DNA from: Escherichia phage vB_EcoM_EC001 | Sequence record: MN445185.1 | Direction: 5' to 3' (one strand) | Length of the DNA stretch: 64,000 bases | Shown here: in pieces, positions 9,611 through 21,625 of the stretch | Layout: each line of letters starts with the position of its first letter | How positions within the stretch are numbered: the first letter of the stretch is position 1 | Program-made: the position numbers and the translations under genes | The notes under the pieces: generated by a model | The model's input: the letters and a program-made list of their open reading frames with translations, nothing else | What the model was told of the DNA's origin: nothing | The model's database searches: none

Positions 9611-9657
9611 ATAAAAGGTACCTACCTCCCTTCGGGGAGGTAGGGCCTTTATTTTCT
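9611..9657. terminator. Bidirectional intrinsic terminator (end of minus-strand operon and of 9033..9581)
   Basis: CCTACCTCCC-TTCG-GGGAGGTAGG hairpin flanked by A-run and T-run. Confidence 0.7.
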
Positions 9658-9661
9658 TTGC

Positions 9662-10333
9662 TTACATGCCGAGTGATTCGGACAATGTTTTTAATCCAGT
9701 GTAATCGCGCTTTTCAGCTAACTCACGGATTTGGCGTTTGTTATCTGCCATTGCTGAGTGCAACACCTGGTCGCGTGCAACAATAGCGGCCAACAACGCT
9801 TTACATTGGTCTACTGTAAACGGACTGTGCTTCGTATTCAGCGTATCGAGCCAGTATTCTGGTGCGGTATCTGCCTGAATGTATTGACCGAGGATGGTAC
9901 GCGACGATTCATCGGCTTGAAAGTGACTACCTTCAAACTCGATATAACCATGACGCTCATCTTCGTAGCGATGGTCAAGTTCCAACAGCATCTTCTGCAC
10001 GTCTTCGTAAATGTAACGTGCGGTAGATTTCAGATTCCCGCGAATTTCGTCGAGGTCAATCTCCAGCACATTAGCAATAAACTCTTTCGTGCGTTTCAAT
10101 GTGAATTTAGCTTCAATCTCCGACATCTCATACAGCTTCATGCGTGCCAGGGCTTCTTTATCAGACATCCCTTCGATGAGATGATAATGGAGCAGAGCGC
10201 AAAAGCCTGTACGGCCCTGATCCTGCGCACCGATTCGTTCCATGAAATTACCGTGACGATCAATCGGCAAATCACGCTGGAAATAACGGGCGCGGATCTC
10301 TTCGTTCGTTAAGCTTTTGTCAGTAACAGACAT
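9662..10333 (-). CDS. Hypothetical protein (last gene of the minus-strand operon)
   Basis: 223 aa ORF ending just before bidirectional terminator 9611..9657; no recognisable motif. Confidence 0.5.
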   Translation of the reverse strand: MSVTDKSLTNEEIRARYFQRDLPIDRHGNFMERIGAQDQGRTGFCALLHYHLIEGMSDKEALARMKLYEMSEIEAKFTLKRTKEFIANVLEIDLDEIRGNLKSTARYIYEDVQKMLLELDHRYEDERHGYIEFEGSHFQADESSRTILGQYIQADTAPEYWLDTLNTKHSPFTVDQCKALLAAIVARDQVLHSAMADNKRQIRELAEKRDYTGLKTLSESLGM

Positions 10334-10875
10334 TCGTCCTCCTCAATCAGGCCAAGTTCTAACAACAAACCGAAGTCCAGCATCTGGAAGTCCTGATCGA
10401 GGTTACCGGCCCACAACAGAGAAATGTTGTGTTGCTCTTCTTCTTCCAACTGCGGGAGCAGGTGTTCTTCGAAGATTTGACGTTCTGTGTAATAAGCGTC
10501 AACCGGGTTATTGGAGCGTAAGTTACGAATACGCATCCGCGGGAAAGACAAGCCCAAAGCCACTAAACTTTCAGGACTGGCTTCATCGATGGAATGACGT
10601 AGCAGTTCGATTTTGTGGCGTGGGTATGCGAGCAGTCGCTTCTCAAAGCCAGGGTTGCGCTTTTCGATTTCCGCGACAGACTCGTGTCCTTTCTCAACGC
10701 AGTAGACCGGGATCATCACATTCAGCCCGTATTTAATCAACAGGCTTTGGATTTCATCAGTGAAGTCTTCCCCTGCCACAATTGCGTGCACATTGTACAG
10801 CTTGCTTTTGCGCAGGAAGCGATCGACCAAGTGCAGTTTACGCTTCGTAAAATTGTGAATCAGTATTGACTTCAT
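10309..10875 (-). CDS. Hypothetical protein
   Basis: Start moved to the internal ATG (MKSILIHNF...) which has GGAG 7 nt upstream; overlaps the upstream rSAM gene by about 38 nt. Confidence 0.5.
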   Translation of the reverse strand: MKSILIHNFTKRKLHLVDRFLRKSKLYNVHAIVAGEDFTDEIQSLLIKYGLNVMIPVYCVEKGHESVAEIEKRNPGFEKRLLAYPRHKIELLRHSIDEASPESLVALGLSFPRMRIRNLRSNNPVDAYYTERQIFEEHLLPQLEEEEQHNISLLWAGNLDQDFQMLDFGLLLELGLIEEDECLLLTKA

Positions 10876-12166
10876 TCTGGGCTCCGTTTTGTAATTTTTC
10901 TGCTTCGGCACGTTGGCGTACACAACGTGAACAATAGCACATGGATTTATCATGCAAATCTGATGCGCGGGTCGTACCAGTTTTCTGATACCAATATTCC
11001 GCCGCCATCAGTTTCGCAGTAGTCCAACCACACTGACGACGCTCGGCGTGATACGCTTTACGGTCTTCCAGTGTACCTTCACCGTTTTCGTACGATGCTG
11101 CTGCGCAGCTACCGCAACTGTGTTTCATCGGACACCCTAAACAGGTTTCTGGGTAGTTGGTGTACTGCGTTTGAATCTCTTCTAACAGCTTACCACCGTC
11201 CAGGCTCACAAACTCACGACCGACCAGTTCTGCTACAGCAGAGCGGGAAGTTACCGTGGACATGAAACGGTTACAACCGTAAATCTTGCGATCAAAGCCG
11301 AGACAGGTCATGTGCGTCAACGTACCGCAGTACGGTTTCAGGCGTTCTGGGTCGAGACGAACAGAGTCGTCATGTAAGAGTTTGTCACGCCAATCCGGGT
11401 CCCAAGTTGCCATAAAGTTCAGGCCATCCGGGATGATGTGCGTAATCGTGTTACGCGGGTTGGTGTGCAGACCCTTCTCAATCCAGTAGTCCATCACGTC
11501 CATCATCTGGTTCGCGATATCCAACGCCATATGGCGCGGCAGGATATCTTCGTACGTTACATTACCAGAAATGGTACCACCGCCGGACATGTCAATTAAC
11601 GATTTCATGCTGGCGGCATAGTGCGGCAATGTATCGATCGTGAACGTCGCCTTTACGCCCAGCTCAGCGATGCCGACACTCTTCAGATAATTGTAACCGC
11701 GTACCGCAGCTTCGTACGACCCTTCACGCGTCGTGGTAAAGATACGATATTTGTCATGGACTTCAGGTAAACCATCGATGGAGACCCCAATAGACAGTTT
11801 GTCTTTCCAGCGCTCGATAATTTCTTTGTTCAGCGGACGGTCCAGAAGTGTACCGTTCGTGGAGATACTGAACATATACGGGCGATTGTGTTCTGCGCAT
11901 AACTTCTCTGCGGTTTCAAAGGCCGCCAAAAGAAGTTTAGGCTGCATGAACGGCTCACCACCAATGATATCGATGATGACTTCAACGTTCGGGATATCTT
12001 TATCGCGCTCGAAACAAGCGTGGATAAAATCAATCACGTCTGCTACTTTGTTGTTACGAGGATATTTACGCTCGTAGCAGTATTCGCAGTCCAGGTTACA
12101 TGACAGGTTAGTCACAACCTGATACGTGCGTGGTGTGTACTGGATTTGCTGTTCGCTGTTACTCAT
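10838..12166 (-). CDS. Radical SAM enzyme with C-terminal Cys-rich (SPASM/twitch-like) auxiliary cluster domain
   Basis: CNLDCEYC (CxxxCxxC) near the N-terminus and GGEP SAM-binding motif; C-terminal clusters CGTLTHMTC, CLGCPMKHSCGSC (Cx2Cx5Cx2C) and CYCSRC. Start overlaps the upstream gene stop (ATGAGTAA). Confidence 0.8.
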   Translation of the reverse strand: MSNSEQQIQYTPRTYQVVTNLSCNLDCEYCYERKYPRNNKVADVIDFIHACFERDKDIPNVEVIIDIIGGEPFMQPKLLLAAFETAEKLCAEHNRPYMFSISTNGTLLDRPLNKEIIERWKDKLSIGVSIDGLPEVHDKYRIFTTTREGSYEAAVRGYNYLKSVGIAELGVKATFTIDTLPHYAASMKSLIDMSGGGTISGNVTYEDILPRHMALDIANQMMDVMDYWIEKGLHTNPRNTITHIIPDGLNFMATWDPDWRDKLLHDDSVRLDPERLKPYCGTLTHMTCLGFDRKIYGCNRFMSTVTSRSAVAELVGREFVSLDGGKLLEEIQTQYTNYPETCLGCPMKHSCGSCAAASYENGEGTLEDRKAYHAERRQCGWTTAKLMAAEYWYQKTGTTRASDLHDKSMCYCSRCVRQRAEAEKLQNGAQNEVNTDSQFYEA

Positions 12167-13073
12167 TGTTCGCCGCCCGTTTACGCTTAGCAGAAATTAC
12201 ACGGTTGATGTAGTTATACGCATCAACGCCGATAGAACGCGCCAGGCGATTACAGCCGACTTCCAATATCTCTGGGGCGTTCTGAATTTGCTCCTGCGTA
12301 CCGTCGGCGTTAAGCCACAGCACTTCACTGCACGTGTTGCACTCGGTATCGAACATTTTACTGATCGCAAGCCCACACTCAGAATCGTTCTGCATGTTAA
12401 GGCGTTCGATATTGTCGAGTATTTTCCAATACCCGTACATGAAGTTCATGACGTGGTCTGGCGATAACGGTTTCGGCATCATCGCATCAAACAGCAACGA
12501 CATACCACCTGGACGGTAATGATAGATTGCTCGGTGCAGCTCGATGAAATCTTCGTACCAGCGTTTATCGCCTAACTGGTCACGCGTCATCACACCCCAG
12601 GTGTAATAGTTGTCCAGCTCGTACAGCACTTCCAGCGCTTCGTGATTACCACCGTTTACAAAGTTCATAAACGGACGTTCCGACTTCTTGTAGCCGTCAA
12701 TGGACACAAAGATAAGGTCGAACTGTTTCAGCAACGGCAGATGTGATTTACGCATCTTTAAACCGTTGGTGTACATGTGATGACGGAGGTTCGGATGAGA
12801 CTCCTTCAACTCGTTCACGAAGTCTTCAATCTTACGCTGCGCTAACAGCGGCTCACCGCCCGTCCAATGAATCTCACCGATATCCGGATTCTTCTCTAAA
12901 ATCGAGAGAATCTCTTCACGTTGAAACTCACGAGAAGTATCTTCTCTATCCATGTAATAAGCCCCTCCACAGAAGCTACAGTCTAAGTTACACTTAGAAG
13001 TTGCGACAACCGACAGAATTGACGGTTTGTCGTACAGTTCAGACGAGATCCTGGATTCTACTTGATCTGTCAT
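12159..13073 (-). CDS. Radical SAM enzyme (second, shorter)
   Basis: CNLDCSFCGG (CxxxCxxC), GGEP motif, and C-terminal cysteines (ECGLAISKMFDTECNTC...GC) suggesting an auxiliary cluster. Confidence 0.75.
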   Translation of the reverse strand: MTDQVESRISSELYDKPSILSVVATSKCNLDCSFCGGAYYMDREDTSREFQREEILSILEKNPDIGEIHWTGGEPLLAQRKIEDFVNELKESHPNLRHHMYTNGLKMRKSHLPLLKQFDLIFVSIDGYKKSERPFMNFVNGGNHEALEVLYELDNYYTWGVMTRDQLGDKRWYEDFIELHRAIYHYRPGGMSLLFDAMMPKPLSPDHVMNFMYGYWKILDNIERLNMQNDSECGLAISKMFDTECNTCSEVLWLNADGTQEQIQNAPEILEVGCNRLARSIGVDAYNYINRVISAKRKRAANNE

Positions 13074-13094: not shown

Positions 13095-13982
13095 TTAAAT
13101 ATAATCAATGGCGAATAAAGGATCTTCGTCTACATTAGCGCCAGGCACCAGTAACATCGGGTCGTGATAGGCAGCTAAAATTTTGTTCAGGTCGGCGTGT
13201 CTTTCGTTCAGACGTTTCAAATCGGCCAACGTTACCGAACGACTACGAATCTCAGAAACAGCTTCTGCTTCTTCTTTCGTTAAATCCACCTTCGTTAAGA
13301 GGAAGCTTACCAGCTTACTCAAATCCGCTTCTGTCGCCGGGTAATCCCCATATCGAGTTTGAACCAGGTGTTGCATCCACGGCTTACGAATACGTTTGGT
13401 GATTTCAAAATCGTCAGTCAGCGCATACCAGACAGAACGCTTTTTATCCCACACGAACTTATAGCTATACGCCATCATGTCCGCTAAACGGGTGATGCCG
13501 AGTTCTTTATATCCCTCGATATCGATGTACGGTTCGGTGTCGAAATACGTTTCCGTATCGGCAGGTACCAGTACAAAGTAGTAAGGGAATGAGCCCAGAT
13601 AGTCCGGACTCCACCAACGGCGCGCCATCGGTTTTGCTTCGAGTTCGTCAAACGGTGTAAACATCAGTTCTAAATCGACACTGTTGTTCAGAATCCCTTC
13701 ACTGAAGAAATACTTACCGTCAACCAACACGCCGCGAGAGTTACCATCGCCGTTAAAGATAACGATGGCCTCTGCAACCATATCACGGATCTTAAACGTA
13801 TTTTCTACGGTGTAGTTCTTCTTGTCGGTCAAGAAGCGACCACGAACCTTTGGCCACTCACCAGGAATCTGTGCAATCAGTCTGACTTTGTCAGCGAGGT
13901 GTGCACGCACCGAATCTGGGGAAGATAGATGCAGCGGGTGGTTGAATGTGGTTTTATACGCAAGATGCAAATCGTTTTTCAT
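13095..13982 (-). CDS. Hypothetical protein between the Cys-rich genes and the rSAM genes
   Basis: 295 aa ORF in operon context; no recognisable motif. Confidence 0.55.
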   Translation of the reverse strand: MKNDLHLAYKTTFNHPLHLSSPDSVRAHLADKVRLIAQIPGEWPKVRGRFLTDKKNYTVENTFKIRDMVAEAIVIFNGDGNSRGVLVDGKYFFSEGILNNSVDLELMFTPFDELEAKPMARRWWSPDYLGSFPYYFVLVPADTETYFDTEPYIDIEGYKELGITRLADMMAYSYKFVWDKKRSVWYALTDDFEITKRIRKPWMQHLVQTRYGDYPATEADLSKLVSFLLTKVDLTKEEAEAVSEIRSRSVTLADLKRLNERHADLNKILAAYHDPMLLVPGANVDEDPLFAIDYI

Positions 13983-14004: not shown

Positions 14005-14211
14005 TTATCGATTCCCCGCTCCACGGCTACAGCTTCCGCTGCAGGACCAGCTACACCCACCATTACAATTATAGTGAGAAAGCGGTAAGCCAGCCAGGTT
14101 ATTTGTGGTCGACACGGTGCCCTGGTTAGCGATATAGTTGTTTGCCTGTGCGGTTGTAATGTAACCTTCTGCCGTAACGAGACGGTTTCGAATAGTCTTG
14201 AGACTGATCAC
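14005..14211 (-). CDS. Cys-rich small protein, short paralog (precursor-peptide-like)
   Basis: 68 aa. N-terminal MISLKTIRNRL... resembles the other two; core HYNCNGGCSWSCSGSC. Confidence 0.55.
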   Translation of the reverse strand: MISLKTIRNRLVTAEGYITTAQANNYIANQGTVSTTNNLAGLPLSHYNCNGGCSWSCSGSCSRGAGNR

Positions 14212-14226
14212 ATAAGCCTCCGTCAG

Positions 14227-14631
14227 TTAGGAGTTAGGACCTGAACAACCACCAGAGCACGCACCTGAGCAGTTTGCGGAGCAGGATTTACCACAACCCC
14301 CAGAACAGCTGCCTGTGCACGTGCCGCTACAACCACCAGAGCACGAAGAGCTACAGCCCGTGCAGCTGCTGCTACAGCCCGATACACAGTTTGCGGAACA
14401 AGTCGACCCACAACCACCCGTAGCAGACCCAGTACACCCGCCAGAACAACTCGAGCAACTAAAAGAGCATGTGCCACCACAGTCATAGTGCGAACGGCCT
14501 TGACCTGCGAACAAGTCGGCGTTATTCGTAGCTTTATTGCGAATGTAGTTTTGCACATTCGTGGTGTTCTTTAAAGCGTTTGCATCGATCGTGTTTAATC
14601 GGTTATTCAGTTCTTTTAATCCAATTGCCAT
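14227..14631 (-). CDS. Cys/Ser/Gly-rich protein (precursor-peptide-like, about 20 Cys at C-x3-C periodicity)
   Basis: 134 aa. Conserved N-terminal segment MAIGLKELNNRL...; core DCGGTCSFSCSSCSGGC...CSANCSGACSGGCSG. Confidence 0.65.
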   Translation of the reverse strand: MAIGLKELNNRLNTIDANALKNTTNVQNYIRNKATNNADLFAGQGRSHYDCGGTCSFSCSSCSGGCTGSATGGCGSTCSANCVSGCSSSCTGCSSSCSGGCSGTCTGSCSGGCGKSCSANCSGACSGGCSGPNS

Positions 14632-14641
14632 TTAATCCCCC

Positions 14642-15034
14642 TTAGCGACCTGAACAGCCACCGGAGCAGGCTCCGGAACAATTGGAAGAACAAGAGCCCC
14701 CGCAACCACCTGTGCAGTTACCGGTACAGCTACTACTGCAACCACCAGAACAACCAGAGCAACCAGAACAGTTACCGCCACACGTCGAAGAACAGCTACC
14801 GATACAAGAAGCAGAACAGCTTCCTGAACAGCTCGAACAGCCATGCGAGCAACCGTTAGAGCACGTCCAAGAACATGTCCCGCCGCAATCTAGCTGTGCT
14901 TTCGTCCAACCCCCAAATCGGTCTGCCGCATTATGGGCTTTAGAGGCCACTTGCGCGTCGACGCGGGGGCCTGTCGCCATGTTAGCTTCGACTATCTGGA
15001 CGCGGTTTCTGACGTCTTTAATAGATATCGCCAT
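14642..15034 (-). CDS. Cys/Ser/Gly-rich protein (precursor-peptide-like), paralog of 14227..14631
   Basis: 130 aa. MAISIKDVRNRV... N-terminus; core DCGGTCSWTCSNGCSHGC...CSSNCSGACSGGCSG. RBS AAGGAA upstream. Confidence 0.65.
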   Translation of the reverse strand: MAISIKDVRNRVQIVEANMATGPRVDAQVASKAHNAADRFGGWTKAQLDCGGTCSWTCSNGCSHGCSSCSGSCSASCIGSCSSTCGGNCSGCSGCSGGCSSSCTGNCTGGCGGSCSSNCSGACSGGCSGR

Positions 15035-15040
15035 TACGCT

Positions 15041-15090
15041 TCCTTAAAAAGTAGAACGAGCGGACTATGTCCATAAACATAGTCCGGCTC
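15041..15090 (-). terminator. Hairpin (possible partial terminator/attenuator) between tail-fibre gene and Cys-rich genes
   Basis: CGGACTATG...CATAGTCCG 9-bp stem (15061-15069, 15078-15086); a short T-run follows on the minus strand and overlaps the RBS of 14642..15034. Confidence 0.35.
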
Positions 15091-15099
15091 GTAAACAAG

Positions 15100-16302
15100 T
15101 TACTTAGTACCCGCTTCAGCTTGAACATCGTCGCGCGAGGTGAGGTTGTTGTTGACGTGAACAGCAGCCTGCACAACACCGCCATACTGTTTATGGAGGT
15201 AATTCGGGTGTGGGTTATCCGCAGCCGCATGGTTCGCCAGATTCTGGTTTGCCTGCGAAATTGCGTTGGTGTTGTTTACAACCTGAGTTTTAAGACTGTT
15301 GATTTGTCCTTGCAGGTTATCAATTTGCTGTTGGAAGTCTTTGCCCTGATTCTCAAGATCCGTGACGCGCTGATTTGTTTTATTCAGTGCAGACTGAAGA
15401 TCGTTAACCATCTTCTGTAATTGCAACACCAGAGAATTAAGGTTAGCTAATGCTAACGACATTTTCTGGTAATTTTGAGCAACCACGTTAAGCTGGTCGT
15501 TCCACGCGGCTAACGAAGCCACAATTGCATCGATGCGTTGCCCCAACGCTGTGTCTGCTGCTCTTAAGTCGCCGATATCTTTGATAGTGGCGTCAATGGC
15601 AGTCTGTACACTTTGAATCAGGGCACGAATCTCCGTCTCCGTCAGGCCATTAACCTGATGAATGTCGAGATTGTGTACGTTACCTTCGGCGTTGATGTGG
15701 GTATTTAAGGCGTCGAGGAAGTCGTTTTTCAGACCACCCAGAATACCTTTAATTTCTTCCAGCTGTACTGCAGAGCCGGAGTTAATCGCATCTTTAATCC
15801 CCGCGAGTACGGTAATGATATACTCAAAACCGTAGATATCGCCAAGGTCTTTATACGTCGGGGCGGATGGGAACGTATCGGGTACGTTTCGAAGATCCTT
15901 GAAGTCCACCACGCGGTCTTCAATTTTCAACGACGCAATCGCTTGTCGGATGCCTTCGACGTTCGCGGACTGAAAACCACCAACGACTTGCGCAGAGACT
16001 TCGATATCAGTAGGAATGGCCGAGTTAGTTACCACCACACCCATGACCACTTCGCGGTTCTTGGTCATTTTCTGATATGCAGTATGTGCAAAAATCAGTT
16101 CGTAGTCTGTACCACGTTTGTACGGGTAGACACCTGGTTTATTCGCAGCCGCCAAGCGGAAGGTATCCGCGTAGAAAGCTCCGTCAGGAAATGCAAAAGC
16201 CCGGTTAACTTTACCAGAACCTAACGTAATACGCCGCGTAACGGCGTTCGACGTTAATGTCCCGGTAAGGTCGAGCGGGTACTGATAAATGATTTCGGCC
16301 AT
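15100..16302 (-). CDS. Tail-fibre-like protein with coiled-coil region
   Basis: Start at MAEIIYQYPLDL with AAGGAG upstream (track start 16338 is a 12-codon extension). N-terminal RGTDYEL domain shared with the three large proteins; heptad-like Q/L/N-rich segment. Confidence 0.6.
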   Translation of the reverse strand: MAEIIYQYPLDLTGTLTSNAVTRRITLGSGKVNRAFAFPDGAFYADTFRLAAANKPGVYPYKRGTDYELIFAHTAYQKMTKNREVVMGVVVTNSAIPTDIEVSAQVVGGFQSANVEGIRQAIASLKIEDRVVDFKDLRNVPDTFPSAPTYKDLGDIYGFEYIITVLAGIKDAINSGSAVQLEEIKGILGGLKNDFLDALNTHINAEGNVHNLDIHQVNGLTETEIRALIQSVQTAIDATIKDIGDLRAADTALGQRIDAIVASLAAWNDQLNVVAQNYQKMSLALANLNSLVLQLQKMVNDLQSALNKTNQRVTDLENQGKDFQQQIDNLQGQINSLKTQVVNNTNAISQANQNLANHAAADNPHPNYLHKQYGGVVQAAVHVNNNLTSRDDVQAEAGTK

Positions 16303-16349
16303 TGCCAAACTCCTTTGATTGGGGCTTCCTTGCCCCATAGCGCTATCTG

Positions 16350-19300
16350 TTAGGTACGGAACATAAGATTGACCTGGATAATATCAGGCTGTTGCCATCC
16401 TCTCTCGTTCACCCAATCGTGCGCAATCGTTAACGTAAGATCATCGCCATCCCACGCCACGATCGGTGGTGGGAATAAACCCTGAGCGCCCGTGGTAACA
16501 ACCGGAATTGCACCCGCCACATCCACAAACGTGTAGCTACGGCTGTTCAAAACAACTGGTGTGCCGTAGGTCTCTCCCCCCAATGGTAAGATTTGAATCT
16601 TACTATCCGAAAGATCGGTGGTGATTGGTAGTCCCCCCGCGTCCGTGAAAAGCCAAGAGCAAATATGCTGGTTGGCCATCTCAAGCGCTGGGGAACTCAA
16701 CACAGCAGCGAAAGTAAACGTACATGGCACGCCTGCGGGCAGAGAATGCTGTTTGTGATACACGGTATGTGGTGTCGGCATTAACACTTCTGGATTTTCA
16801 TCAATGTTAACATCCTTACCTTCCGCCTCGACGTTGTAGAGAAATCTATCTACCGTATCCCATGGGGCGATGTTGACATTAAAGGTCGTTTCTACTCCCG
16901 GTGTACCTGGGACGACGAATTTACTTTGTATCACCACTATCATCATTCCTGAGGTCGGAGAGAAAGCAGGCGTAGGGATACCCACCCACTCCATTCCCAA
17001 CGATGCCGCTTCACCGTTCTCATCGGCCGTTACCGTCGCAATTGTTGTAGGATGTTTCCAAAACGCCCCCGACTTGTTTGCCTGAGTAAACGCCGGCAAA
17101 GTTTTCAAGCCTTCGAAACGTTTGGAGACCATCGGTTTACCGCGACGCTGTGCGTCAGATACGGTATAAAGCAACTGACTATCCAGATAGCCTTTCGTAG
17201 CATCGATCGACAAAGGACCCATCGCTTCTTTACGCAATGGTGCCAGTCTGCCCGTTGCCGCATCCCTTCCCACTTCCACATCATGCTTATTCTCAACCGC
17301 CGCATGTTCCAACAGTTGTTTCACCGCACCCAATCGCTTAGCATGTTCGACGTTAGTCTCGACGACTCGCGACGAGCCCGTTTTAACATACCCGATATAG
17401 AGTTCCGTTTCAGTGTCTGGATGTTGAACCACGTCCATTACGTACTTCGGTGTACCATTTTCTACCTTGGCGTGCAGGTAGAATGTCCGGTTCTGATGGT
17501 TTGTTGGAAATGCTGCGCTGAGGTCAATATACCACGTAGGCAGCTTATAAGTGCTCGAGCCGAAACGCAGGTCAACTTCCTCAGTCACATATACCAGCCA
17601 ACCTTCAGCTGTTTCCACACCAGCAATGACGACCGATTCAGTCGGGCCACTAAAATTAGGAGCCGCGACAAAATCTCTCGACGACGTTGCGATACCACCA
17701 CAATAGACGTAGTCGAGAGATGAGTTGTGTAACATCACTTGATCGCGATGTGCCAGATAAGCTGGACTGACTGGAGTGTGTGACGGTGCCATACGTCCAA
17801 CGCCGTGTGCGGCAGAAGAACGCGTCCAAGTACCATTAGACAGCGTAAGACCAACAGCGTAGTTAAGCGCACCCAAGTCGCCAATCAGGCGCAAGGTTAA
17901 CGTGTGTGGAAGATACAACCCGAACTGCGTACCATCTACCGACACCATGGTAGGTTGTCCCGGCCGGCGTGTTTTTCCTCCCGTTATCTCTCCCAACGTA
18001 GCATAGTTCAAGCCATAGTCGAGGTTGTTATAGAAGTCAAACAATGCCAATATCGCTGCCGGGAATGTTACCTGCCCGTTGCTGATTGTTGGTTTCAGTG
18101 TAAAGTAGTAGATATCCAACACGTTAACGTTGTTCACAGTACGCGTACATGCTACTTGTGCTAACGTGAGCGGTGTGGCCGTACCAATGCCGATGAACCA
18201 AACAGAGAACAGTGCCTTTCCTGCGTTATTTGCGGCAAGGATATATTCCGAAGCATAACCATTCGCAGCGCCTGCCGGTGCTCCGTCGATGATCATCTGC
18301 TTCATCTTATTCCATTCAGCTTGTGACAGCGTCAACCGATCGGCATGAATCGTGAAAGTGCCAGAAACGTTGTGGTAAGGGAATGTTTCTGGCCCTGTGC
18401 AATACCAGCCGTTTAACTCTGTACCAGGCGACGCCGGTGTAACAATGTGGCACATCTGCGACAGATTCTCGTACGTGGTAGAATCCACTACACGACGATT
18501 GTTAGTTGGTCCATACCCCACTTTACCTGAGTAAGTGGTGTTCGGATCAAACTCAACCTCAATTGCCAAACGGGAACGTGGCTGTGACAACCAGATAAGT
18601 CTGGAATTCGCTCCCAGAGTCAGTGGATACGCCATACCCAGCTCGTAGATAGAACCACGACCTTGGTTTAACGTTACCGCACTAAACCTTCTGGCAGTGA
18701 AGTTGTAGTCGCACGACAGGTACTCGTACCAACTCACACCGTCGTCTAACGTGGTAATCGTGACAATTGGCATTAGGTCACGATCGCTGGCATGTCCTTG
18801 CGAAACGATATATTTGTCTTGCGATGTTGCAAAGGTTTGGTTATTAGCTTGACCTTCGCCCCACTTCCGGCTCGGAATCCCAATCTCAGCACCACCGTTA
18901 TAACGAACCGCGGTAAGATCAGCCACAATAGGGAATCGATCAGCCCCTTCCAGCGTTACCGTCATTGAACTGCAATCAACAACAAAGCTTGACACCCATT
19001 GTTTAAAGCTAATCGTCTGCCCTGTGCTGGAGGCAAACCAGACTGTTGGCGTTAAACCAACACGAAAGTTCAGCCCATCAACACCAATCGCGTGATTACA
19101 CTCAGGACCATGTACAAAGTTAGTTGCATTGTTCCACTTCGCTAACGCGTCTGCGTAGATCTGTGTAACTGGTGCTGGGAGCGCATCGGAAGGTGCACGT
19201 TTCTGTCCCTGTCGCAGATAAACGTTTTCACCCGACGTTAATATCCCGCCTGTTAACGCATCCGCCACAAACGTGTTGCTACCACCCGGATTAAGTTCGT

Positions 19301-21533
19301 TGAGTGCGATGCTACGCATACTCACGAAATAGTTACCGGAGGTAAGCACCGTACGCAACAGGTAGACACGTTCATTACAAACAATCAAATCGTCTGTAGA
19401 AGCGTTTGGAGCCCACGGTGCTGTCGTTACTGTGCCCGCACCATTACCGTTCTTGTAATCACCCAACACCACTTTAACAACACGATGATGTTTTGCATGG
19501 TCAATCGTCCCATCGAAGATGACCAGGTAGTACGCACCGTCACTGCCTAAGCAGATCATTGCATCGGTACCGGTAATCACAATAGCAACCAGATTCACCC
19601 CAGGATACGCCGACATTCCAGCGGGTCGATAGCGTACGGACGTCTGCTGCATATTTTCCAGCGTATTGCTTGGCGACACATCAGCATAGGCGTAATAGAT
19701 AGCCCAGTCACCTGGTGGATTCCCGTTAGAACCGTTACGGAGCGAGTAAACCTTACCAGACTCGTAACGCGCCAAACCTTTCTGCCAGGTTTGGTTTTTG
19801 GTGTACCCTTCGTAGTTCCCCTGGACAGGTATAGGCAAGAAGTTATTGTTGCCGTACGATGATCCGCCAACGGTCCATGCTGGCAACAACGTAGCAATCT
19901 TGTCGTTCAGTGTACCGATTTTCTGTTCGAGCAAGAAACCCTGGCGGGCAGTAACCATCTTATCTGTTGTGGTGTCAATAGCGTCCCACAGTTTAGCCAA
20001 ACCTGTAACAGACGTGGATGCGTACGGCACGTTATCGAGATCGGCAATGGTGTGGGTGTGCGTTGAGAGTGCCTTGCCTGATAGCACGGTGCGCAACGCA
20101 TTAGTAACCGGTTTCTCCAGCGGTCCGGTATTGTTCATCTTCTCAATACCGAAATCCGACGCGGTTAAGGTTAAATGCATTTGCCCGTTTTCGTCTAACA
20201 CAAACCCTTTACCATTGACCGTATACGTGTCGTCCACATATCCGTCGAGTTTGTTCTTCAAGTCAGTAACAGCTTTTTGGGAAATCGCTGTGGACGCCGC
20301 GGCGGACGCCGAAAGGTTAGTAATCGCAAACAAGCCCTGCACAGTTGTGGTTGCTGCAGGCAGCTCCGCATTCATGTAAACTTTGTTTGTTTCTTTACCA
20401 GAGCCGTAAATCTTCAACGTGTCGCTGGATTTGAAGTAGGCGTTTGCTGGAAGTATCTTCACCGAGGTCAAGTACATCTTAACCATATCCGGTGTAACGA
20501 GATACACGCCGTTATACACAGGTGCAAGCACACCCGCATCATAATCGCCCCATTTGTCACCTGCTTTACCCGAGTGAACCCAAAGCGTGTTCAGACCAGC
20601 GCTGAACTCCGTAGCGATACCCGGTTCGTTGTTATCCTGATCAGCTTTTAATACCAGCGGTTTTGTCGAGGTGATAATGAACTTCTCACCTTTCATGCTG
20701 ATAACGTGACCGGATGTTGTTTGGAACGTAATCGCGTCGTTATTCAGAACACGCATACGGCCCAGTAAATCACCCAGGGTATTATCCAGAAGCATGTCAA
20801 CGTGTTTTTGTTGGATGCCGCTGGTAGACATTAACGTCACTAACTCTGCCAGGGTACGTCCAAACGCCTTGGTCGCATCTACGGCCTTGCCGAGTACCGG
20901 GAGTGCGCCAATGTCACCGCAGGTGTAACCATGTGCATTTTTAATCAGATGGTGTTGATACATTTCGTCATCAAACACCTGCTTACCGTTCTGATAAATC
21001 AAATCGGTAACTTCGGCAAATGCCTCATCCAGTTCGTGGGCACGTTCTAAAATGCCCAGTCGGATATCTTCCAGCGCCTTTACAATCTCATCGCGAAGGA
21101 TGGCTTCTTCGAGATCTTTTGGCGGATCGATTGGTGAAATGATCGGCGGATATTTCATCAACTCAGACCAATCGCAGTTACGCGGGTCTTTCATATCCGT
21201 CTTAACCAGATACTTGCCGATTTCAGAAGCAGGGATGCGATACTGTCGACCAACCGACAACAACTCGTATTCTAGCTCTGTGGCGTTCAGCAGCATTATG
21301 CTGCCGTATATTGCATCGTTCTCAGCCTCGGCTAATTCCTGGAAGTAATGTCCTAAGAAATAATCAAGACCTTCTATTAACTTGCGTTTGGTTCCGGTTG
21401 TTTTATCGGTAACGGTTAACGTTAACCCGATGCGATAGAACGGTGCTTCGACGGGAATGACCGTCGAATAACGGTTCGGGTAAGTAGCGGTACTGAGGGT
21501 ACCGTTAAACTGCGCCGCATCTTCTCTCGGCAT
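16350..21533 (-). CDS. Very large virion protein (tail fibre/tailspike-like), about 1727 aa
   Basis: Start at MPREDAAQ with AGGAG upstream; N-terminal domain paralogous to those of 21629..25759, 25772..29485 and 15100..16302. Confidence 0.7.
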   Translation of the reverse strand: MPREDAAQFNGTLSTATYPNRYSTVIPVEAPFYRIGLTLTVTDKTTGTKRKLIEGLDYFLGHYFQELAEAENDAIYGSIMLLNATELEYELLSVGRQYRIPASEIGKYLVKTDMKDPRNCDWSELMKYPPIISPIDPPKDLEEAILRDEIVKALEDIRLGILERAHELDEAFAEVTDLIYQNGKQVFDDEMYQHHLIKNAHGYTCGDIGALPVLGKAVDATKAFGRTLAELVTLMSTSGIQQKHVDMLLDNTLGDLLGRMRVLNNDAITFQTTSGHVISMKGEKFIITSTKPLVLKADQDNNEPGIATEFSAGLNTLWVHSGKAGDKWGDYDAGVLAPVYNGVYLVTPDMVKMYLTSVKILPANAYFKSSDTLKIYGSGKETNKVYMNAELPAATTTVQGLFAITNLSASAAASTAISQKAVTDLKNKLDGYVDDTYTVNGKGFVLDENGQMHLTLTASDFGIEKMNNTGPLEKPVTNALRTVLSGKALSTHTHTIADLDNVPYASTSVTGLAKLWDAIDTTTDKMVTARQGFLLEQKIGTLNDKIATLLPAWTVGGSSYGNNNFLPIPVQGNYEGYTKNQTWQKGLARYESGKVYSLRNGSNGNPPGDWAIYYAYADVSPSNTLENMQQTSVRYRPAGMSAYPGVNLVAIVITGTDAMICLGSDGAYYLVIFDGTIDHAKHHRVVKVVLGDYKNGNGAGTVTTAPWAPNASTDDLIVCNERVYLLRTVLTSGNYFVSMRSIALNELNPGGSNTFVADALTGGILTSGENVYLRQGQKRAPSDALPAPVTQIYADALAKWNNATNFVHGPECNHAIGVDGLNFRVGLTPTVWFASSTGQTISFKQWVSSFVVDCSSMTVTLEGADRFPIVADLTAVRYNGGAEIGIPSRKWGEGQANNQTFATSQDKYIVSQGHASDRDLMPIVTITTLDDGVSWYEYLSCDYNFTARRFSAVTLNQGRGSIYELGMAYPLTLGANSRLIWLSQPRSRLAIEVEFDPNTTYSGKVGYGPTNNRRVVDSTTYENLSQMCHIVTPASPGTELNGWYCTGPETFPYHNVSGTFTIHADRLTLSQAEWNKMKQMIIDGAPAGAANGYASEYILAANNAGKALFSVWFIGIGTATPLTLAQVACTRTVNNVNVLDIYYFTLKPTISNGQVTFPAAILALFDFYNNLDYGLNYATLGEITGGKTRRPGQPTMVSVDGTQFGLYLPHTLTLRLIGDLGALNYAVGLTLSNGTWTRSSAAHGVGRMAPSHTPVSPAYLAHRDQVMLHNSSLDYVYCGGIATSSRDFVAAPNFSGPTESVVIAGVETAEGWLVYVTEEVDLRFGSSTYKLPTWYIDLSAAFPTNHQNRTFYLHAKVENGTPKYVMDVVQHPDTETELYIGYVKTGSSRVVETNVEHAKRLGAVKQLLEHAAVENKHDVEVGRDAATGRLAPLRKEAMGPLSIDATKGYLDSQLLYTVSDAQRRGKPMVSKRFEGLKTLPAFTQANKSGAFWKHPTTIATVTADENGEAASLGMEWVGIPTPAFSPTSGMMIVVIQSKFVVPGTPGVETTFNVNIAPWDTVDRFLYNVEAEGKDVNIDENPEVLMPTPHTVYHKQHSLPAGVPCTFTFAAVLSSPALEMANQHICSWLFTDAGGLPITTDLSDSKIQILPLGGETYGTPVVLNSRSYTFVDVAGAIPVVTTGAQGLFPPPIVAWDGDDLTLTIAHDWVNERGWQQPDIIQVNLMFRT

Positions 21534-21567
21534 TGCAAACACTCCTAATCTGTAATAAAACGGAGAC

Positions 21568-21625
21568 CGCCCTCCCAATAACGGAAGGGCGGTTTACCTA
21601 CGGACTACCCGCCCGTAGGCAGTCC
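21568..21625 (-). terminator. Hairpin region between two large minus-strand genes (possible attenuator)
   Basis: ACCGCCCT...AGGGCGGT stem (21568-21575, 21589-21596) followed on the minus strand by CTCCGTTTTATTAC. Confidence 0.4.

Follow-up and report, generated by a model that had tools for sequence, protein, structure and literature searches.

Cysteine-periodic proteins in the tail-fiber operon of an SPN3US-like jumbo phage as candidate radical SAM-modified fiber modules

Results

We analyzed three consecutive minus-strand genes, here called CysA, CysB, and CysC, in a 64,000-nucleotide stretch of Escherichia phage vB_EcoM_EC001 (MN445185.1; hereafter the window, meaning that whole stretch). 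The window shares 98–99% identity with Salmonella phage SPN3US and related jumbo phages of the Chimalliviridae (Seoulvirus), and in SPN3US numbering the gene order on the minus strand is gp168, gp167, CysA/CysB/CysC, gp165, gp164, gp163, gp162, and gp161 (Table 1). All three are genuine late genes belonging to the tail-fiber operon, and the two long products carry cores in which cysteine recurs at every fourth position. We propose that these proteins, which would be modified by the radical S-adenosylmethionine (rSAM) enzymes gp163 and gp164 encoded downstream, are probably structural modules of the tail fiber.

The three genes lie within a tail-fiber module, with gp168 and gp167 directly upstream and a terminator downstream (9621–9644). 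Homologs of the gp167 N-domain run on into tail-fiber repeats and a Peptidase_S74 chaperone domain. The RNA hairpin that separates gp167 from CysA is possibly an attenuator or processing site and could set the ratio of fiber protein to Cys proteins.

Table 1 Features of the leftward fiber/rSAM transcription unit, listed from upstream to downstream in window coordinates
Feature	Position	Strand	Description
gp168	16350..21578	-	1742 amino acids (aa); candidate for baseplate or tail fiber, found in virions (PMC5105663; PMC5694885)
gp167	15100..16338	-	Coiled-coil fiber protein, virion structural; directly upstream of the Cys genes; phrog_2163; annotated 'virion structural protein 20'
RNA hairpin	15056..15092	-	16 bp, followed by a U-run; between gp167 stop and CysA start; folding free energy -24.3 kcal/mol, z -3.7
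CysA	14642..15034	-	130 aa, ATG start, 21 Cys; phrog_6085 E 1e-40; TIGR04114 18.9 bits; unannotated in SPN3US
CysB	14227..14631	-	134 aa, ATG start, 20-Cys core; phrog_6085 E 3e-41; overlain by SPN3US_0166 in the wrong frame
CysC	14005..14211	-	68 aa, GTG start; N-terminal segment and junction as in CysA and CysB; 4 Cys (CNGGCSWSCSGSC)
gp165-like accessory protein	13095..13982	-	295 aa; phrog_8030; no family annotation; co-occurs with type 1 (fiber-type) cassettes
rSAM2, gp164	12159..13073	-	304 aa; CX3CX2C at C28/C32/C35; no SPASM domain; PF04055 E 1e-15
rSAM1, gp163	10838..12166	-	442 aa; radical SAM/SPASM; best families TIGR04115 and PapB
gp162 and gp161	9662..10953	-	gp162, function unassigned; gp161, DUF4376, tail-protein-like (family scans); final genes of the leftward unit
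Terminator-like hairpin	9621..9644	.	Bidirectional, 10 bp of which 7 GC; closes the leftward fiber/rSAM transcription unit

The current annotation of this locus conceals all three genes. Both the GenBank and the RefSeq record of SPN3US hold a single coding sequence here (SPN3US_0166/ACQ60_gp100, window 14223–14558, minus strand), which follows a Val/Ala-rich wrong frame, and neither record annotates CysA or CysC. Because the open reading frames (ORFs) are unannotated or mis-framed, searches of reference proteomes are blind to the three proteins. A Shine-Dalgarno sequence, as read from the DNA, precedes every ORF (AAGGAAG, AAGGGGGA, and GGAGG before CysA, CysB, and CysC, respectively). In comparisons with four diverged orthologs, third positions of the Cys frame had changed two to three times more often than first and second positions (e.g., 26/16/79), and most insertions and deletions were multiples of three in that frame, indicating that the Cys frame is the coding frame. 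All three products match PHROG 6085, with E values from 1e-24 to 1e-41. The region appears to be error-prone in sequencing: a protein from a Logan assembly that is 99% identical to CysB (P0001, 165 aa) is frameshifted and exits the core into another frame, probably through an assembly error in the repeat, and the SPFM phage records are split into 40 pieces here.

The original prediction, made from the DNA letters and their ORFs, had described three paralogs with a common N-terminal segment and a Cys at every fourth position, about 20 in each long paralog and 6 in the short one. An alignment of the three proteins bears out the shared segment, with M1, I3, K6, N10, R11, G42, and a block C..G.CS..CS invariant. 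CysA consists of an N-terminal segment of ~49 aa, a junction (QLDCGGTCSWTC), and a core of 21 Cys in C-x3 spacing that ends in NCSGACSGGCSGR; CysB has 20 Cys, and the count for CysC had been too high, since it has 4. The C-x3-C spacing holds in 17 of 20 intervals in CysA and 16 of 19 in CysB, and in 100,000 shuffles of each core that preserved its composition, the number of such intervals never rose above nine. The repeat unit of the core is C-[ST]-G-[GST], core residues are limited to Ser, Gly, Cys, Thr, Asn, and Ala with Asp and Glu absent, and Cys makes up about 25% of the core.

The two long paralogs had also been said to end identically, which is true of the segment NCSGACSGGCSG near both C-termini but not of the very ends, where CysA continues with R and CysB with PNS. 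The codons for NCSGACSGGCSG differ between the two genes, whose longest common DNA word is 11 nt, so its identity has been kept at the protein level and does not reflect gene conversion. Tandem Repeats Finder detected only weak, short DNA arrays in the locus, and the periodicity is therefore not a product of recent slippage; the pattern is held by selection on the protein. Taken together, the repeat-finder result and the codon divergence led us to reject slippage of the DNA and gene conversion as origins of the repeats. AlphaFold2 predicted helices at residues 5–18 and 23–32 of CysB and left the core unstructured with a confidence (pLDDT) of 43, a value uninformative for the core; when unmodified, the core is predicted to be disordered.

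Family searches place the three proteins close to a curated but uncharacterized group of rSAM targets. Scores against TIGR04114 ('Cys-rich repeat', rSAM target) were 18.9, 17.1, and 13.7 bits for CysA, CysB, and CysC, approaching without reaching the curated cutoff of 20. A Pfam scan of the three proteins at E up to 0.1 returned no family, metallothionein included, and a search of PDB sequences returned only matches to Cys-rich erbB4, which we judged to be spurious.

Coupling between C-x3-periodic proteins and rSAM genes is nearly obligate. Using aligned gp163 homologs as the query against viral contigs, we obtained 67 loci, and a mechanical scan of each looked for C-x3-periodic ORFs lying about 3 kb or less from the rSAM gene and sharing its strand. 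Such an ORF was found in 60 of the 67 loci; the seven exceptions comprised three truncated rSAM matches, two of them at a contig end, and four weak matches to the rSAM core only. Within the 64-kb window the same scan scored at this locus alone. In bacterial genomes, close relatives of gp163 (L077–L082, L084, and L087) were accompanied by such an ORF, whereas distant relatives were not. Searching in the reverse direction, we found an rSAM gene adjacent to all six repeat proteins identified by homology to CysB. Homologs occurring widely without an adjacent rSAM gene, which the original prediction had named as evidence that would speak against it, are thus not what we observed: an rSAM gene was adjacent in every context examined.

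The cassette, in the order fiber-CX3 protein, gp165-like protein, rSAM2, and rSAM1, recurs in SPN3US-, Erwinia-, and Cronobacter-type jumbo phages, in T7-like podophages, in baseplate-bearing phages, and in Desulfoluna. One phage relative (L032) scores above both curated cutoffs (TIGR04115, 385.8 against 350; TIGR04114, 21.9 against 20) and lies in a tail module, so the database's 'CXXX-repeat' family is at least partly a tail-module system of phages and prophages. The SPN3US cassette is, as judged from sequence comparison, a divergent branch of this TIGR04114/TIGR04115 system.

We distinguished three architectures among the loci: in type 1 the core is C-terminal, and in types 2 and 3 a domain of ~110 aa stands before or after it. 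Type 1 proteins run from a fiber part through a junction to the core at the C-terminus, with the junction consensus [ND]A..L.G....[HDY][YF].C.G.CSW[ST]C; the corresponding segments in the window are NNADLFAGQGRSHYDCGGTCSFSC in CysB, NAADRFGGWTKAQLDCGGTCSWTC in CysA, and TNNLAGLPLSHYNCNGGCSWSC in CysC. Junction and core end tail-fiber proteins in T7-like podophages, in baseplate-bearing myophages, and at a Desulfoluna locus. Examples include a 568-aa protein with fiber-like repeats (L024), a protein of 401 aa that combines collagen G-X-Y repeats with tail-fiber PHROG matches (L026), proteins of 206–213 aa with the tail-fiber N-domain phrog_5073 on two T7-like podophage contigs (L003 and L004), and a 257-aa Desulfoluna protein with HxH repeats and a CX3 core (L077), whose match to the Pfam family 'Phage tail repeat like' scores 25 bits (cutoff, 27). 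In these five loci and in L078 the module is covalently part of a recognized fiber protein. The stretch before the core, which the original prediction had read as a leader of the kind found in peptides made by ribosomes and modified after translation (RiPPs), is thus a junction motif that elsewhere belongs to the end of long tail-fiber proteins (568, 401, and 257 aa).

Gene order around the other cassettes points the same way. On the T7-like contigs, the place of T7 gp17 is taken by just three proteins: one of 180–229 aa with the T7 tail-attachment domain, a small one that is collagen-like, and the Cys-repeat protein. Next come the enzymes and, in L004, the terminase. In L004 the collagen-like protein adjoins the Cys-repeat protein and the two have an N-terminal domain in common. 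Type 1 loci generally have a gp165-like gene and both types of rSAM gene, whereas loci of types 2 and 3 have a single rSAM gene, and none of the accessory proteins of the latter loci matched an NCBIfam family. At loci of types 2 and 3 (L032, L041, L028, L052, L068, and L080, the last in a Ruminococcaceae metagenome-assembled genome), genes stand in the order baseplate hub, wedge, baseplate protein, tail fiber, rSAM, and Cys protein; Mu/P2-like contigs run from baseplate hub through wedge, tail fiber, and rSAM to the Cys protein. Some gut-phage loci (L032, 7770–14619, and L037) carry three Cys-repeat paralogs that begin with the core and end in the conserved ~110-aa domain; between them stand small conserved ORFs (clusters c18 and c29) and fiber-like proteins of cluster c2. 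SPN3US is therefore not alone in having several copies of the target gene.

The trio itself is maintained among close relatives. CysA, CysB, and the short CysC were kept in 14 of 14 related jumbo-phage loci of the SPN3US, Erwinia, and Cronobacter types, in which a hidden Markov model (HMM) of the N-terminal segment recovered all three paralogs with E values from 1e-11 to 1e-28. CysC is 68–70 aa long in 12 of these loci, in 10 of which it has exactly 4 Cys; the CR5/Kwan-like group has fewer. Such maintenance of a short paralog fits a role in assembly, as a cap or third chain, better than that of a product precursor. When the cores were masked, an HMM of the first 50 residues gave significant matches only within the SPN3US/Erwinia jumbo-phage clade. 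We rejected homology between the N-terminal segment (LKxxxNRL) and the ~110-aa 'LKxRVKxEMxRR' domain of type 2 (hhalign probability, 0.4%).

The radical SAM/SPASM enzyme gp163, located ~1.8 kb downstream of the Cys genes in the same operon, has a CX3CX2C motif (C23, C27, and C30) and seven auxiliary SPASM cysteines (C280, C298, C342, C345, C351, C354, and C379), all of them invariant in an alignment with two distant homologs. Its best curated family is TIGR04115 ('radical SAM peptide maturase, CXXX-repeat target family'), which it matches at 125.6 bits where the cutoff is 350, followed by the PapB ranthipeptide maturase (113.6 bits, near full length). TIGR03906 (QhpD) is among the matches of gp163 and its relatives, and the closest solved structures are CteB (5wgg, E 3e-10) and anSME. 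The gp164 ORF starts at 13073, preceded by the Shine-Dalgarno sequence TGGAG; SPN3US_0164 is annotated from an internal ATG (264 aa), which omits window 12953–13073 (minus strand) and with it the CX3CX2C motif. The C-terminal cysteines of gp164 were not conserved in the alignment, and therefore no auxiliary cluster can be claimed for it.

At two loci, domains like gp164 and gp163 are fused in that order into single proteins of 668–672 aa (L004, 9330–11336; L078, 7122–9137), which argues that the two enzymes work together, probably as a complex; the gp163-like part of the L004 fusion is 34% identical to gp163 (E 1e-57). The gp165-like protein forms a cluster (c3) that is present at seven loci (L003, L004, L010, L014, L020, L025, and L026) and also at L077 and L078. 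Its family is rare, with 49 clusters among 1.84 billion representative proteins. An AlphaFold2 model of gp165 had a high confidence (pLDDT 89.8) and, apart from orthologs, found no fold match in PDB or BFVD.

We scanned the nine ORFs spanning gp161 to gp167, that is, those between gp160 and gp168, with Pfam, NCBIfam, and PHROG, and found no protease or transporter family. Nor did we find a RiPP recognition element (RRE) of the PqqD-like kind: the rSAM motif of gp163, which begins at residue 23, leaves no N-terminal domain, and the gp165 model lacks a PDB fold match.

Several variants were seen outside these contexts. Four bacterial C-x3-repeat proteins (P0017, P0018, P0022, and P0026) carry a twin-arginine signal; in the one genomic context examined, that of P0022 (L120, 788–4638, GCA_024712465.1), the gene has a radical SAM gene (400 aa) and TatC as neighbors, and this points to a non-phage variant whose product is exported after modification or folding. 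On a 118-kb contig (L117, 2949–6636), two radical SAM genes (311 and 427 aa) lie upstream of a core-first Cys-repeat protein, and a gene with a weak match to Peptidase_M28, about 5 kb away, is the sole peptidase seen near any locus.

Discussion

We propose that CysA, CysB, and CysC are rSAM-modified structural fiber modules, an explanation to which, taken as a whole, we assign a probability of about 0.6. Its parts are not equally firm. That the three proteins are substrates of the adjacent rSAM enzymes is very likely, given the synteny and the family relationships; that they are a structural component of the fiber is reasonably likely, in view of the fusion of the same module to fiber proteins elsewhere. 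Late in infection, the C-[ST]-G-x arrays would be modified in the infected cell by the downstream-encoded gp163 (SPASM rSAM) and gp164 (small rSAM), probably acting as a complex, and by gp165, probably their partner. The likeliest chemistry would be thioether formation at many sites, each bridge joining the sulfur of a Cys to a carbon atom in a nearby Ser, Thr, Gly, or Asn residue. We favor thioethers because gp163 is homologous to enzymes of the PapB, CteB, and QhpD type, and the acceptors would have to be Ser, Thr, Gly, or Asn because the cores lack Asp and Glu. The bridges would convert the chain, disordered and rich in thiols, into small rings arranged as a ladder; by analogy with those enzymes we advance this ladder tentatively, as a possibility somewhat under even odds.

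The link in CteA joins Cys to Ser/Thr from i to i+5, and we speculate that a link of this kind would suit the C-S/T period of the window cores. The product would be neither cleaved nor exported and would stay in the fiber apparatus as a stiff module that withstands proteases and reduction. Elsewhere among phages the module is the C-terminal, presumably distal, end of the tail fiber. In SPN3US-like phages it would instead be supplied as three small chains, two long and one short and cap-like, which probably dock by their N-terminal helices on the gp167/gp168 fiber complex.

The nearest relatives are defined in databases: TIGR04114 (Pfam PF27846) and TIGR04115 likewise describe tandem C-x-x-x repeats rich in Ser, Gly, and Thr that adjoin a radical SAM/SPASM enzyme. 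The window proteins score below the cutoffs of these families (18.9, 17.1, and 13.7 against 20 for the Cys proteins; 125.6 against 350 for gp163), and the window cassette adds a second rSAM enzyme, a gp165-like protein, the fiber-type junction CSW[ST]C, and three paralogs. We found no experimental work on the TIGR04114/TIGR04115 family and no mention of tail fibers in connection with it in the searchable literature, and no paper on this rSAM/Cys-repeat fiber system. The system is therefore of a database-defined, uncharacterized kind, and its tail-fiber context is previously undescribed.

Among characterized systems, the SPASM rSAM enzymes of freyrasin (PapA/PapB) and SCIFF (CteA/CteB), to both of which gp163 is related, install repeated Cys thioether bridges. 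Freyrasin contains six C-x3-D rings, a periodic layout like that of the window cores. Unlike ranthipeptides and sactipeptides, the window cores contain no Asp or Glu acceptor and hence no C-x3-D spacing, CysA and CysB have at least 20 Cys rather than 6, no RRE, protease, or exporter was found at the locus, and the substrate in relatives is a whole fiber protein. A precedent for rSAM cross-linking of a protein that is retained rather than released as a peptide is QhpC/QhpD, in which the SPASM rSAM enzyme QhpD (TIGR03906) puts internal Cys thioether cross-links into a subunit that remains in a larger assembly. QhpC differs in that its bridges are few and join Cys to Asp/Glu, and in that it is a subunit of a bacterial periplasmic enzyme and belongs to another substrate family, whereas the assembly here would be a virion. 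As for fibers themselves, collagen-like G-X-Y and HxH-repeat fibers likewise use a short-period repeat of small residues as fiber body or tip, but two rSAM enzymes are encoded alongside the Cys-repeat module here; we know of no enzyme-made covalent cross-links in collagen-like or HxH phage fibers.

The main alternative takes the RiPP reading in its classical form: the N-terminal 50 residues would be a leader that the maturases recognize, and the modified core would be cleaved and, at lysis, set free as a bioactive peptide, directed for example at competing bacteria or phages or at the host. The precursors are indeed short, there are several paralogs beside PapB/CteB-like rSAM/SPASM maturases, TIGR04114 and TIGR04115 were curated as peptide-maturation systems, and the core is predicted to be disordered. 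We nevertheless consider this unlikely. The operon lacks a leader peptidase, exporter, or RRE, homologous cores are the C-terminal parts of tail-fiber proteins of 250–570 aa, the cassettes are constantly placed in baseplate and fiber modules across unrelated phage types, and a conserved CysC with 4 Cys makes little sense as a product precursor. What survives of the RiPP reading is the rSAM half: the near-threshold TIGR04114 scores, TIGR04115 as the best family of gp163, and the adjacency of the rSAM genes all argue for rSAM substrates. The classical layout of leader plus core is not supported, given genes inside a tail-fiber operon and clade-specific N-terminal helices. The other suggestion of the original prediction, a structural protein attached to the fiber, fares better, with rSAM modification added to it rather than replaced by it.

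A related option keeps the modification and denies incorporation into the virion, casting the modified proteins as a buffer for redox or sulfur, or as a scaffold or chaperone in the assembly of fiber or baseplate. Chaperones are frequent in phage fiber operons, the Cys proteins have no fiber domains of their own, and gp161 contains DUF4376, which is common in proteins of the fiber-assembly type; against this, the module is covalently within the fiber protein in other phages, and ~20 conserved periodic Cys plus two rSAM enzymes would be superfluous for a chaperone, which makes a purely auxiliary role quite improbable. Less probable again is an unmodified structural protein that binds metal (Zn, Fe, or Fe-S) or forms disulfides after lysis, with the rSAM enzymes serving another target. 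The high Cys content of the cores would suit it, and metal ions are known in phage fibers, as at the HxH iron sites of T4 gp37. However, the metal-binding option raised by the original prediction found no match to metallothionein or any other metal-binding family, the almost pure C-x3 spacing with small residues is unlike the CxC/CxxC patterns of metallothioneins, and this explanation would leave the near-obligate rSAM co-occurrence and the curated CXXX link unaccounted for. Finally, one could hold that low-complexity DNA has left these ORFs open by chance and that the true frame is that of SPN3US_0166, since the region has several open frames and the reference annotation uses a different one. 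The Shine-Dalgarno site before each ORF, the third-position excess in the Cys frame, the recovery of the trio by the N-terminal HMM in 14 loci, and the match to PHROG 6085 at E 1e-40 leave this practically no credence; the codon-position test and the conservation already refute it.

Several observations weigh against the proposal that the Cys proteins are rSAM-modified fiber modules. Published SPN3US virion proteomes are silent on CysA, CysB, and CysC, although the reference annotation made their detection impossible. Both gp163 and the Cys proteins fall under the curated TIGR04115 and TIGR04114 cutoffs, and with no Asp or Glu in the cores the best-studied acceptor chemistry of PapB and QhpD does not apply as such. 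The Cys proteins themselves showed no recognizable fiber domain in family scans. On other fiber proteins the HMM of the first 50 residues aligns only its last ~15–20 residues, the junction, at E ~2–3, and the N-terminal helices gave no significant match to fiber proteins outside the clade. Homologs of gp167 within the clade are about 395–400 aa long, and none was fused to a Cys core.

We further suggest, a shade more readily than the ladder itself in SPN3US-like phages and still short of an even bet, that diverse phages use dedicated rSAM enzymes to weld a Cys-periodic polypeptide into a thioether-laddered fiber rod or tip, including jumbo chimalliviruses, T7-like podophages, and Mu/P2-like gut phages and prophages. 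To our knowledge, covalent chemistry on virus particles has so far been essentially limited to cases such as the isopeptide links of the HK97 capsid and glycosylation. If our proposal is correct, it would constitute a new class of covalent post-translational chemistry in virus particles and the first rSAM chemistry of the RiPP type on a virion structural protein. It would also explain radical SAM genes inside the structural clusters of giant phages: in the Aeromonas chimallivirus 332-Vera, eight radical SAM genes inside the baseplate/tail-fiber cluster were called highly unusual and left unexplained (PMC12390700), and this set may be an expanded version of the rSAM/Cys-repeat system described here.

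Since SPN3US is a genetic model phage with amber mutants, the idea is directly testable, and correcting the mis-annotated reference genomes matters because they have made proteomic and comparative studies blind to the Cys genes. A heavily thioether-bridged fiber tip would bear on phage stability, on host recognition, for which SPN3US reportedly uses flagella (PMC11428620), and on the design of protease-resistant peptide materials. For the family as a whole, the proposal, if true, would give the uncharacterized rSAM/CXXX-repeat proteins a biological role, and what databases list as 'CXXX-repeat peptides' would really be a phage tail-fiber module.

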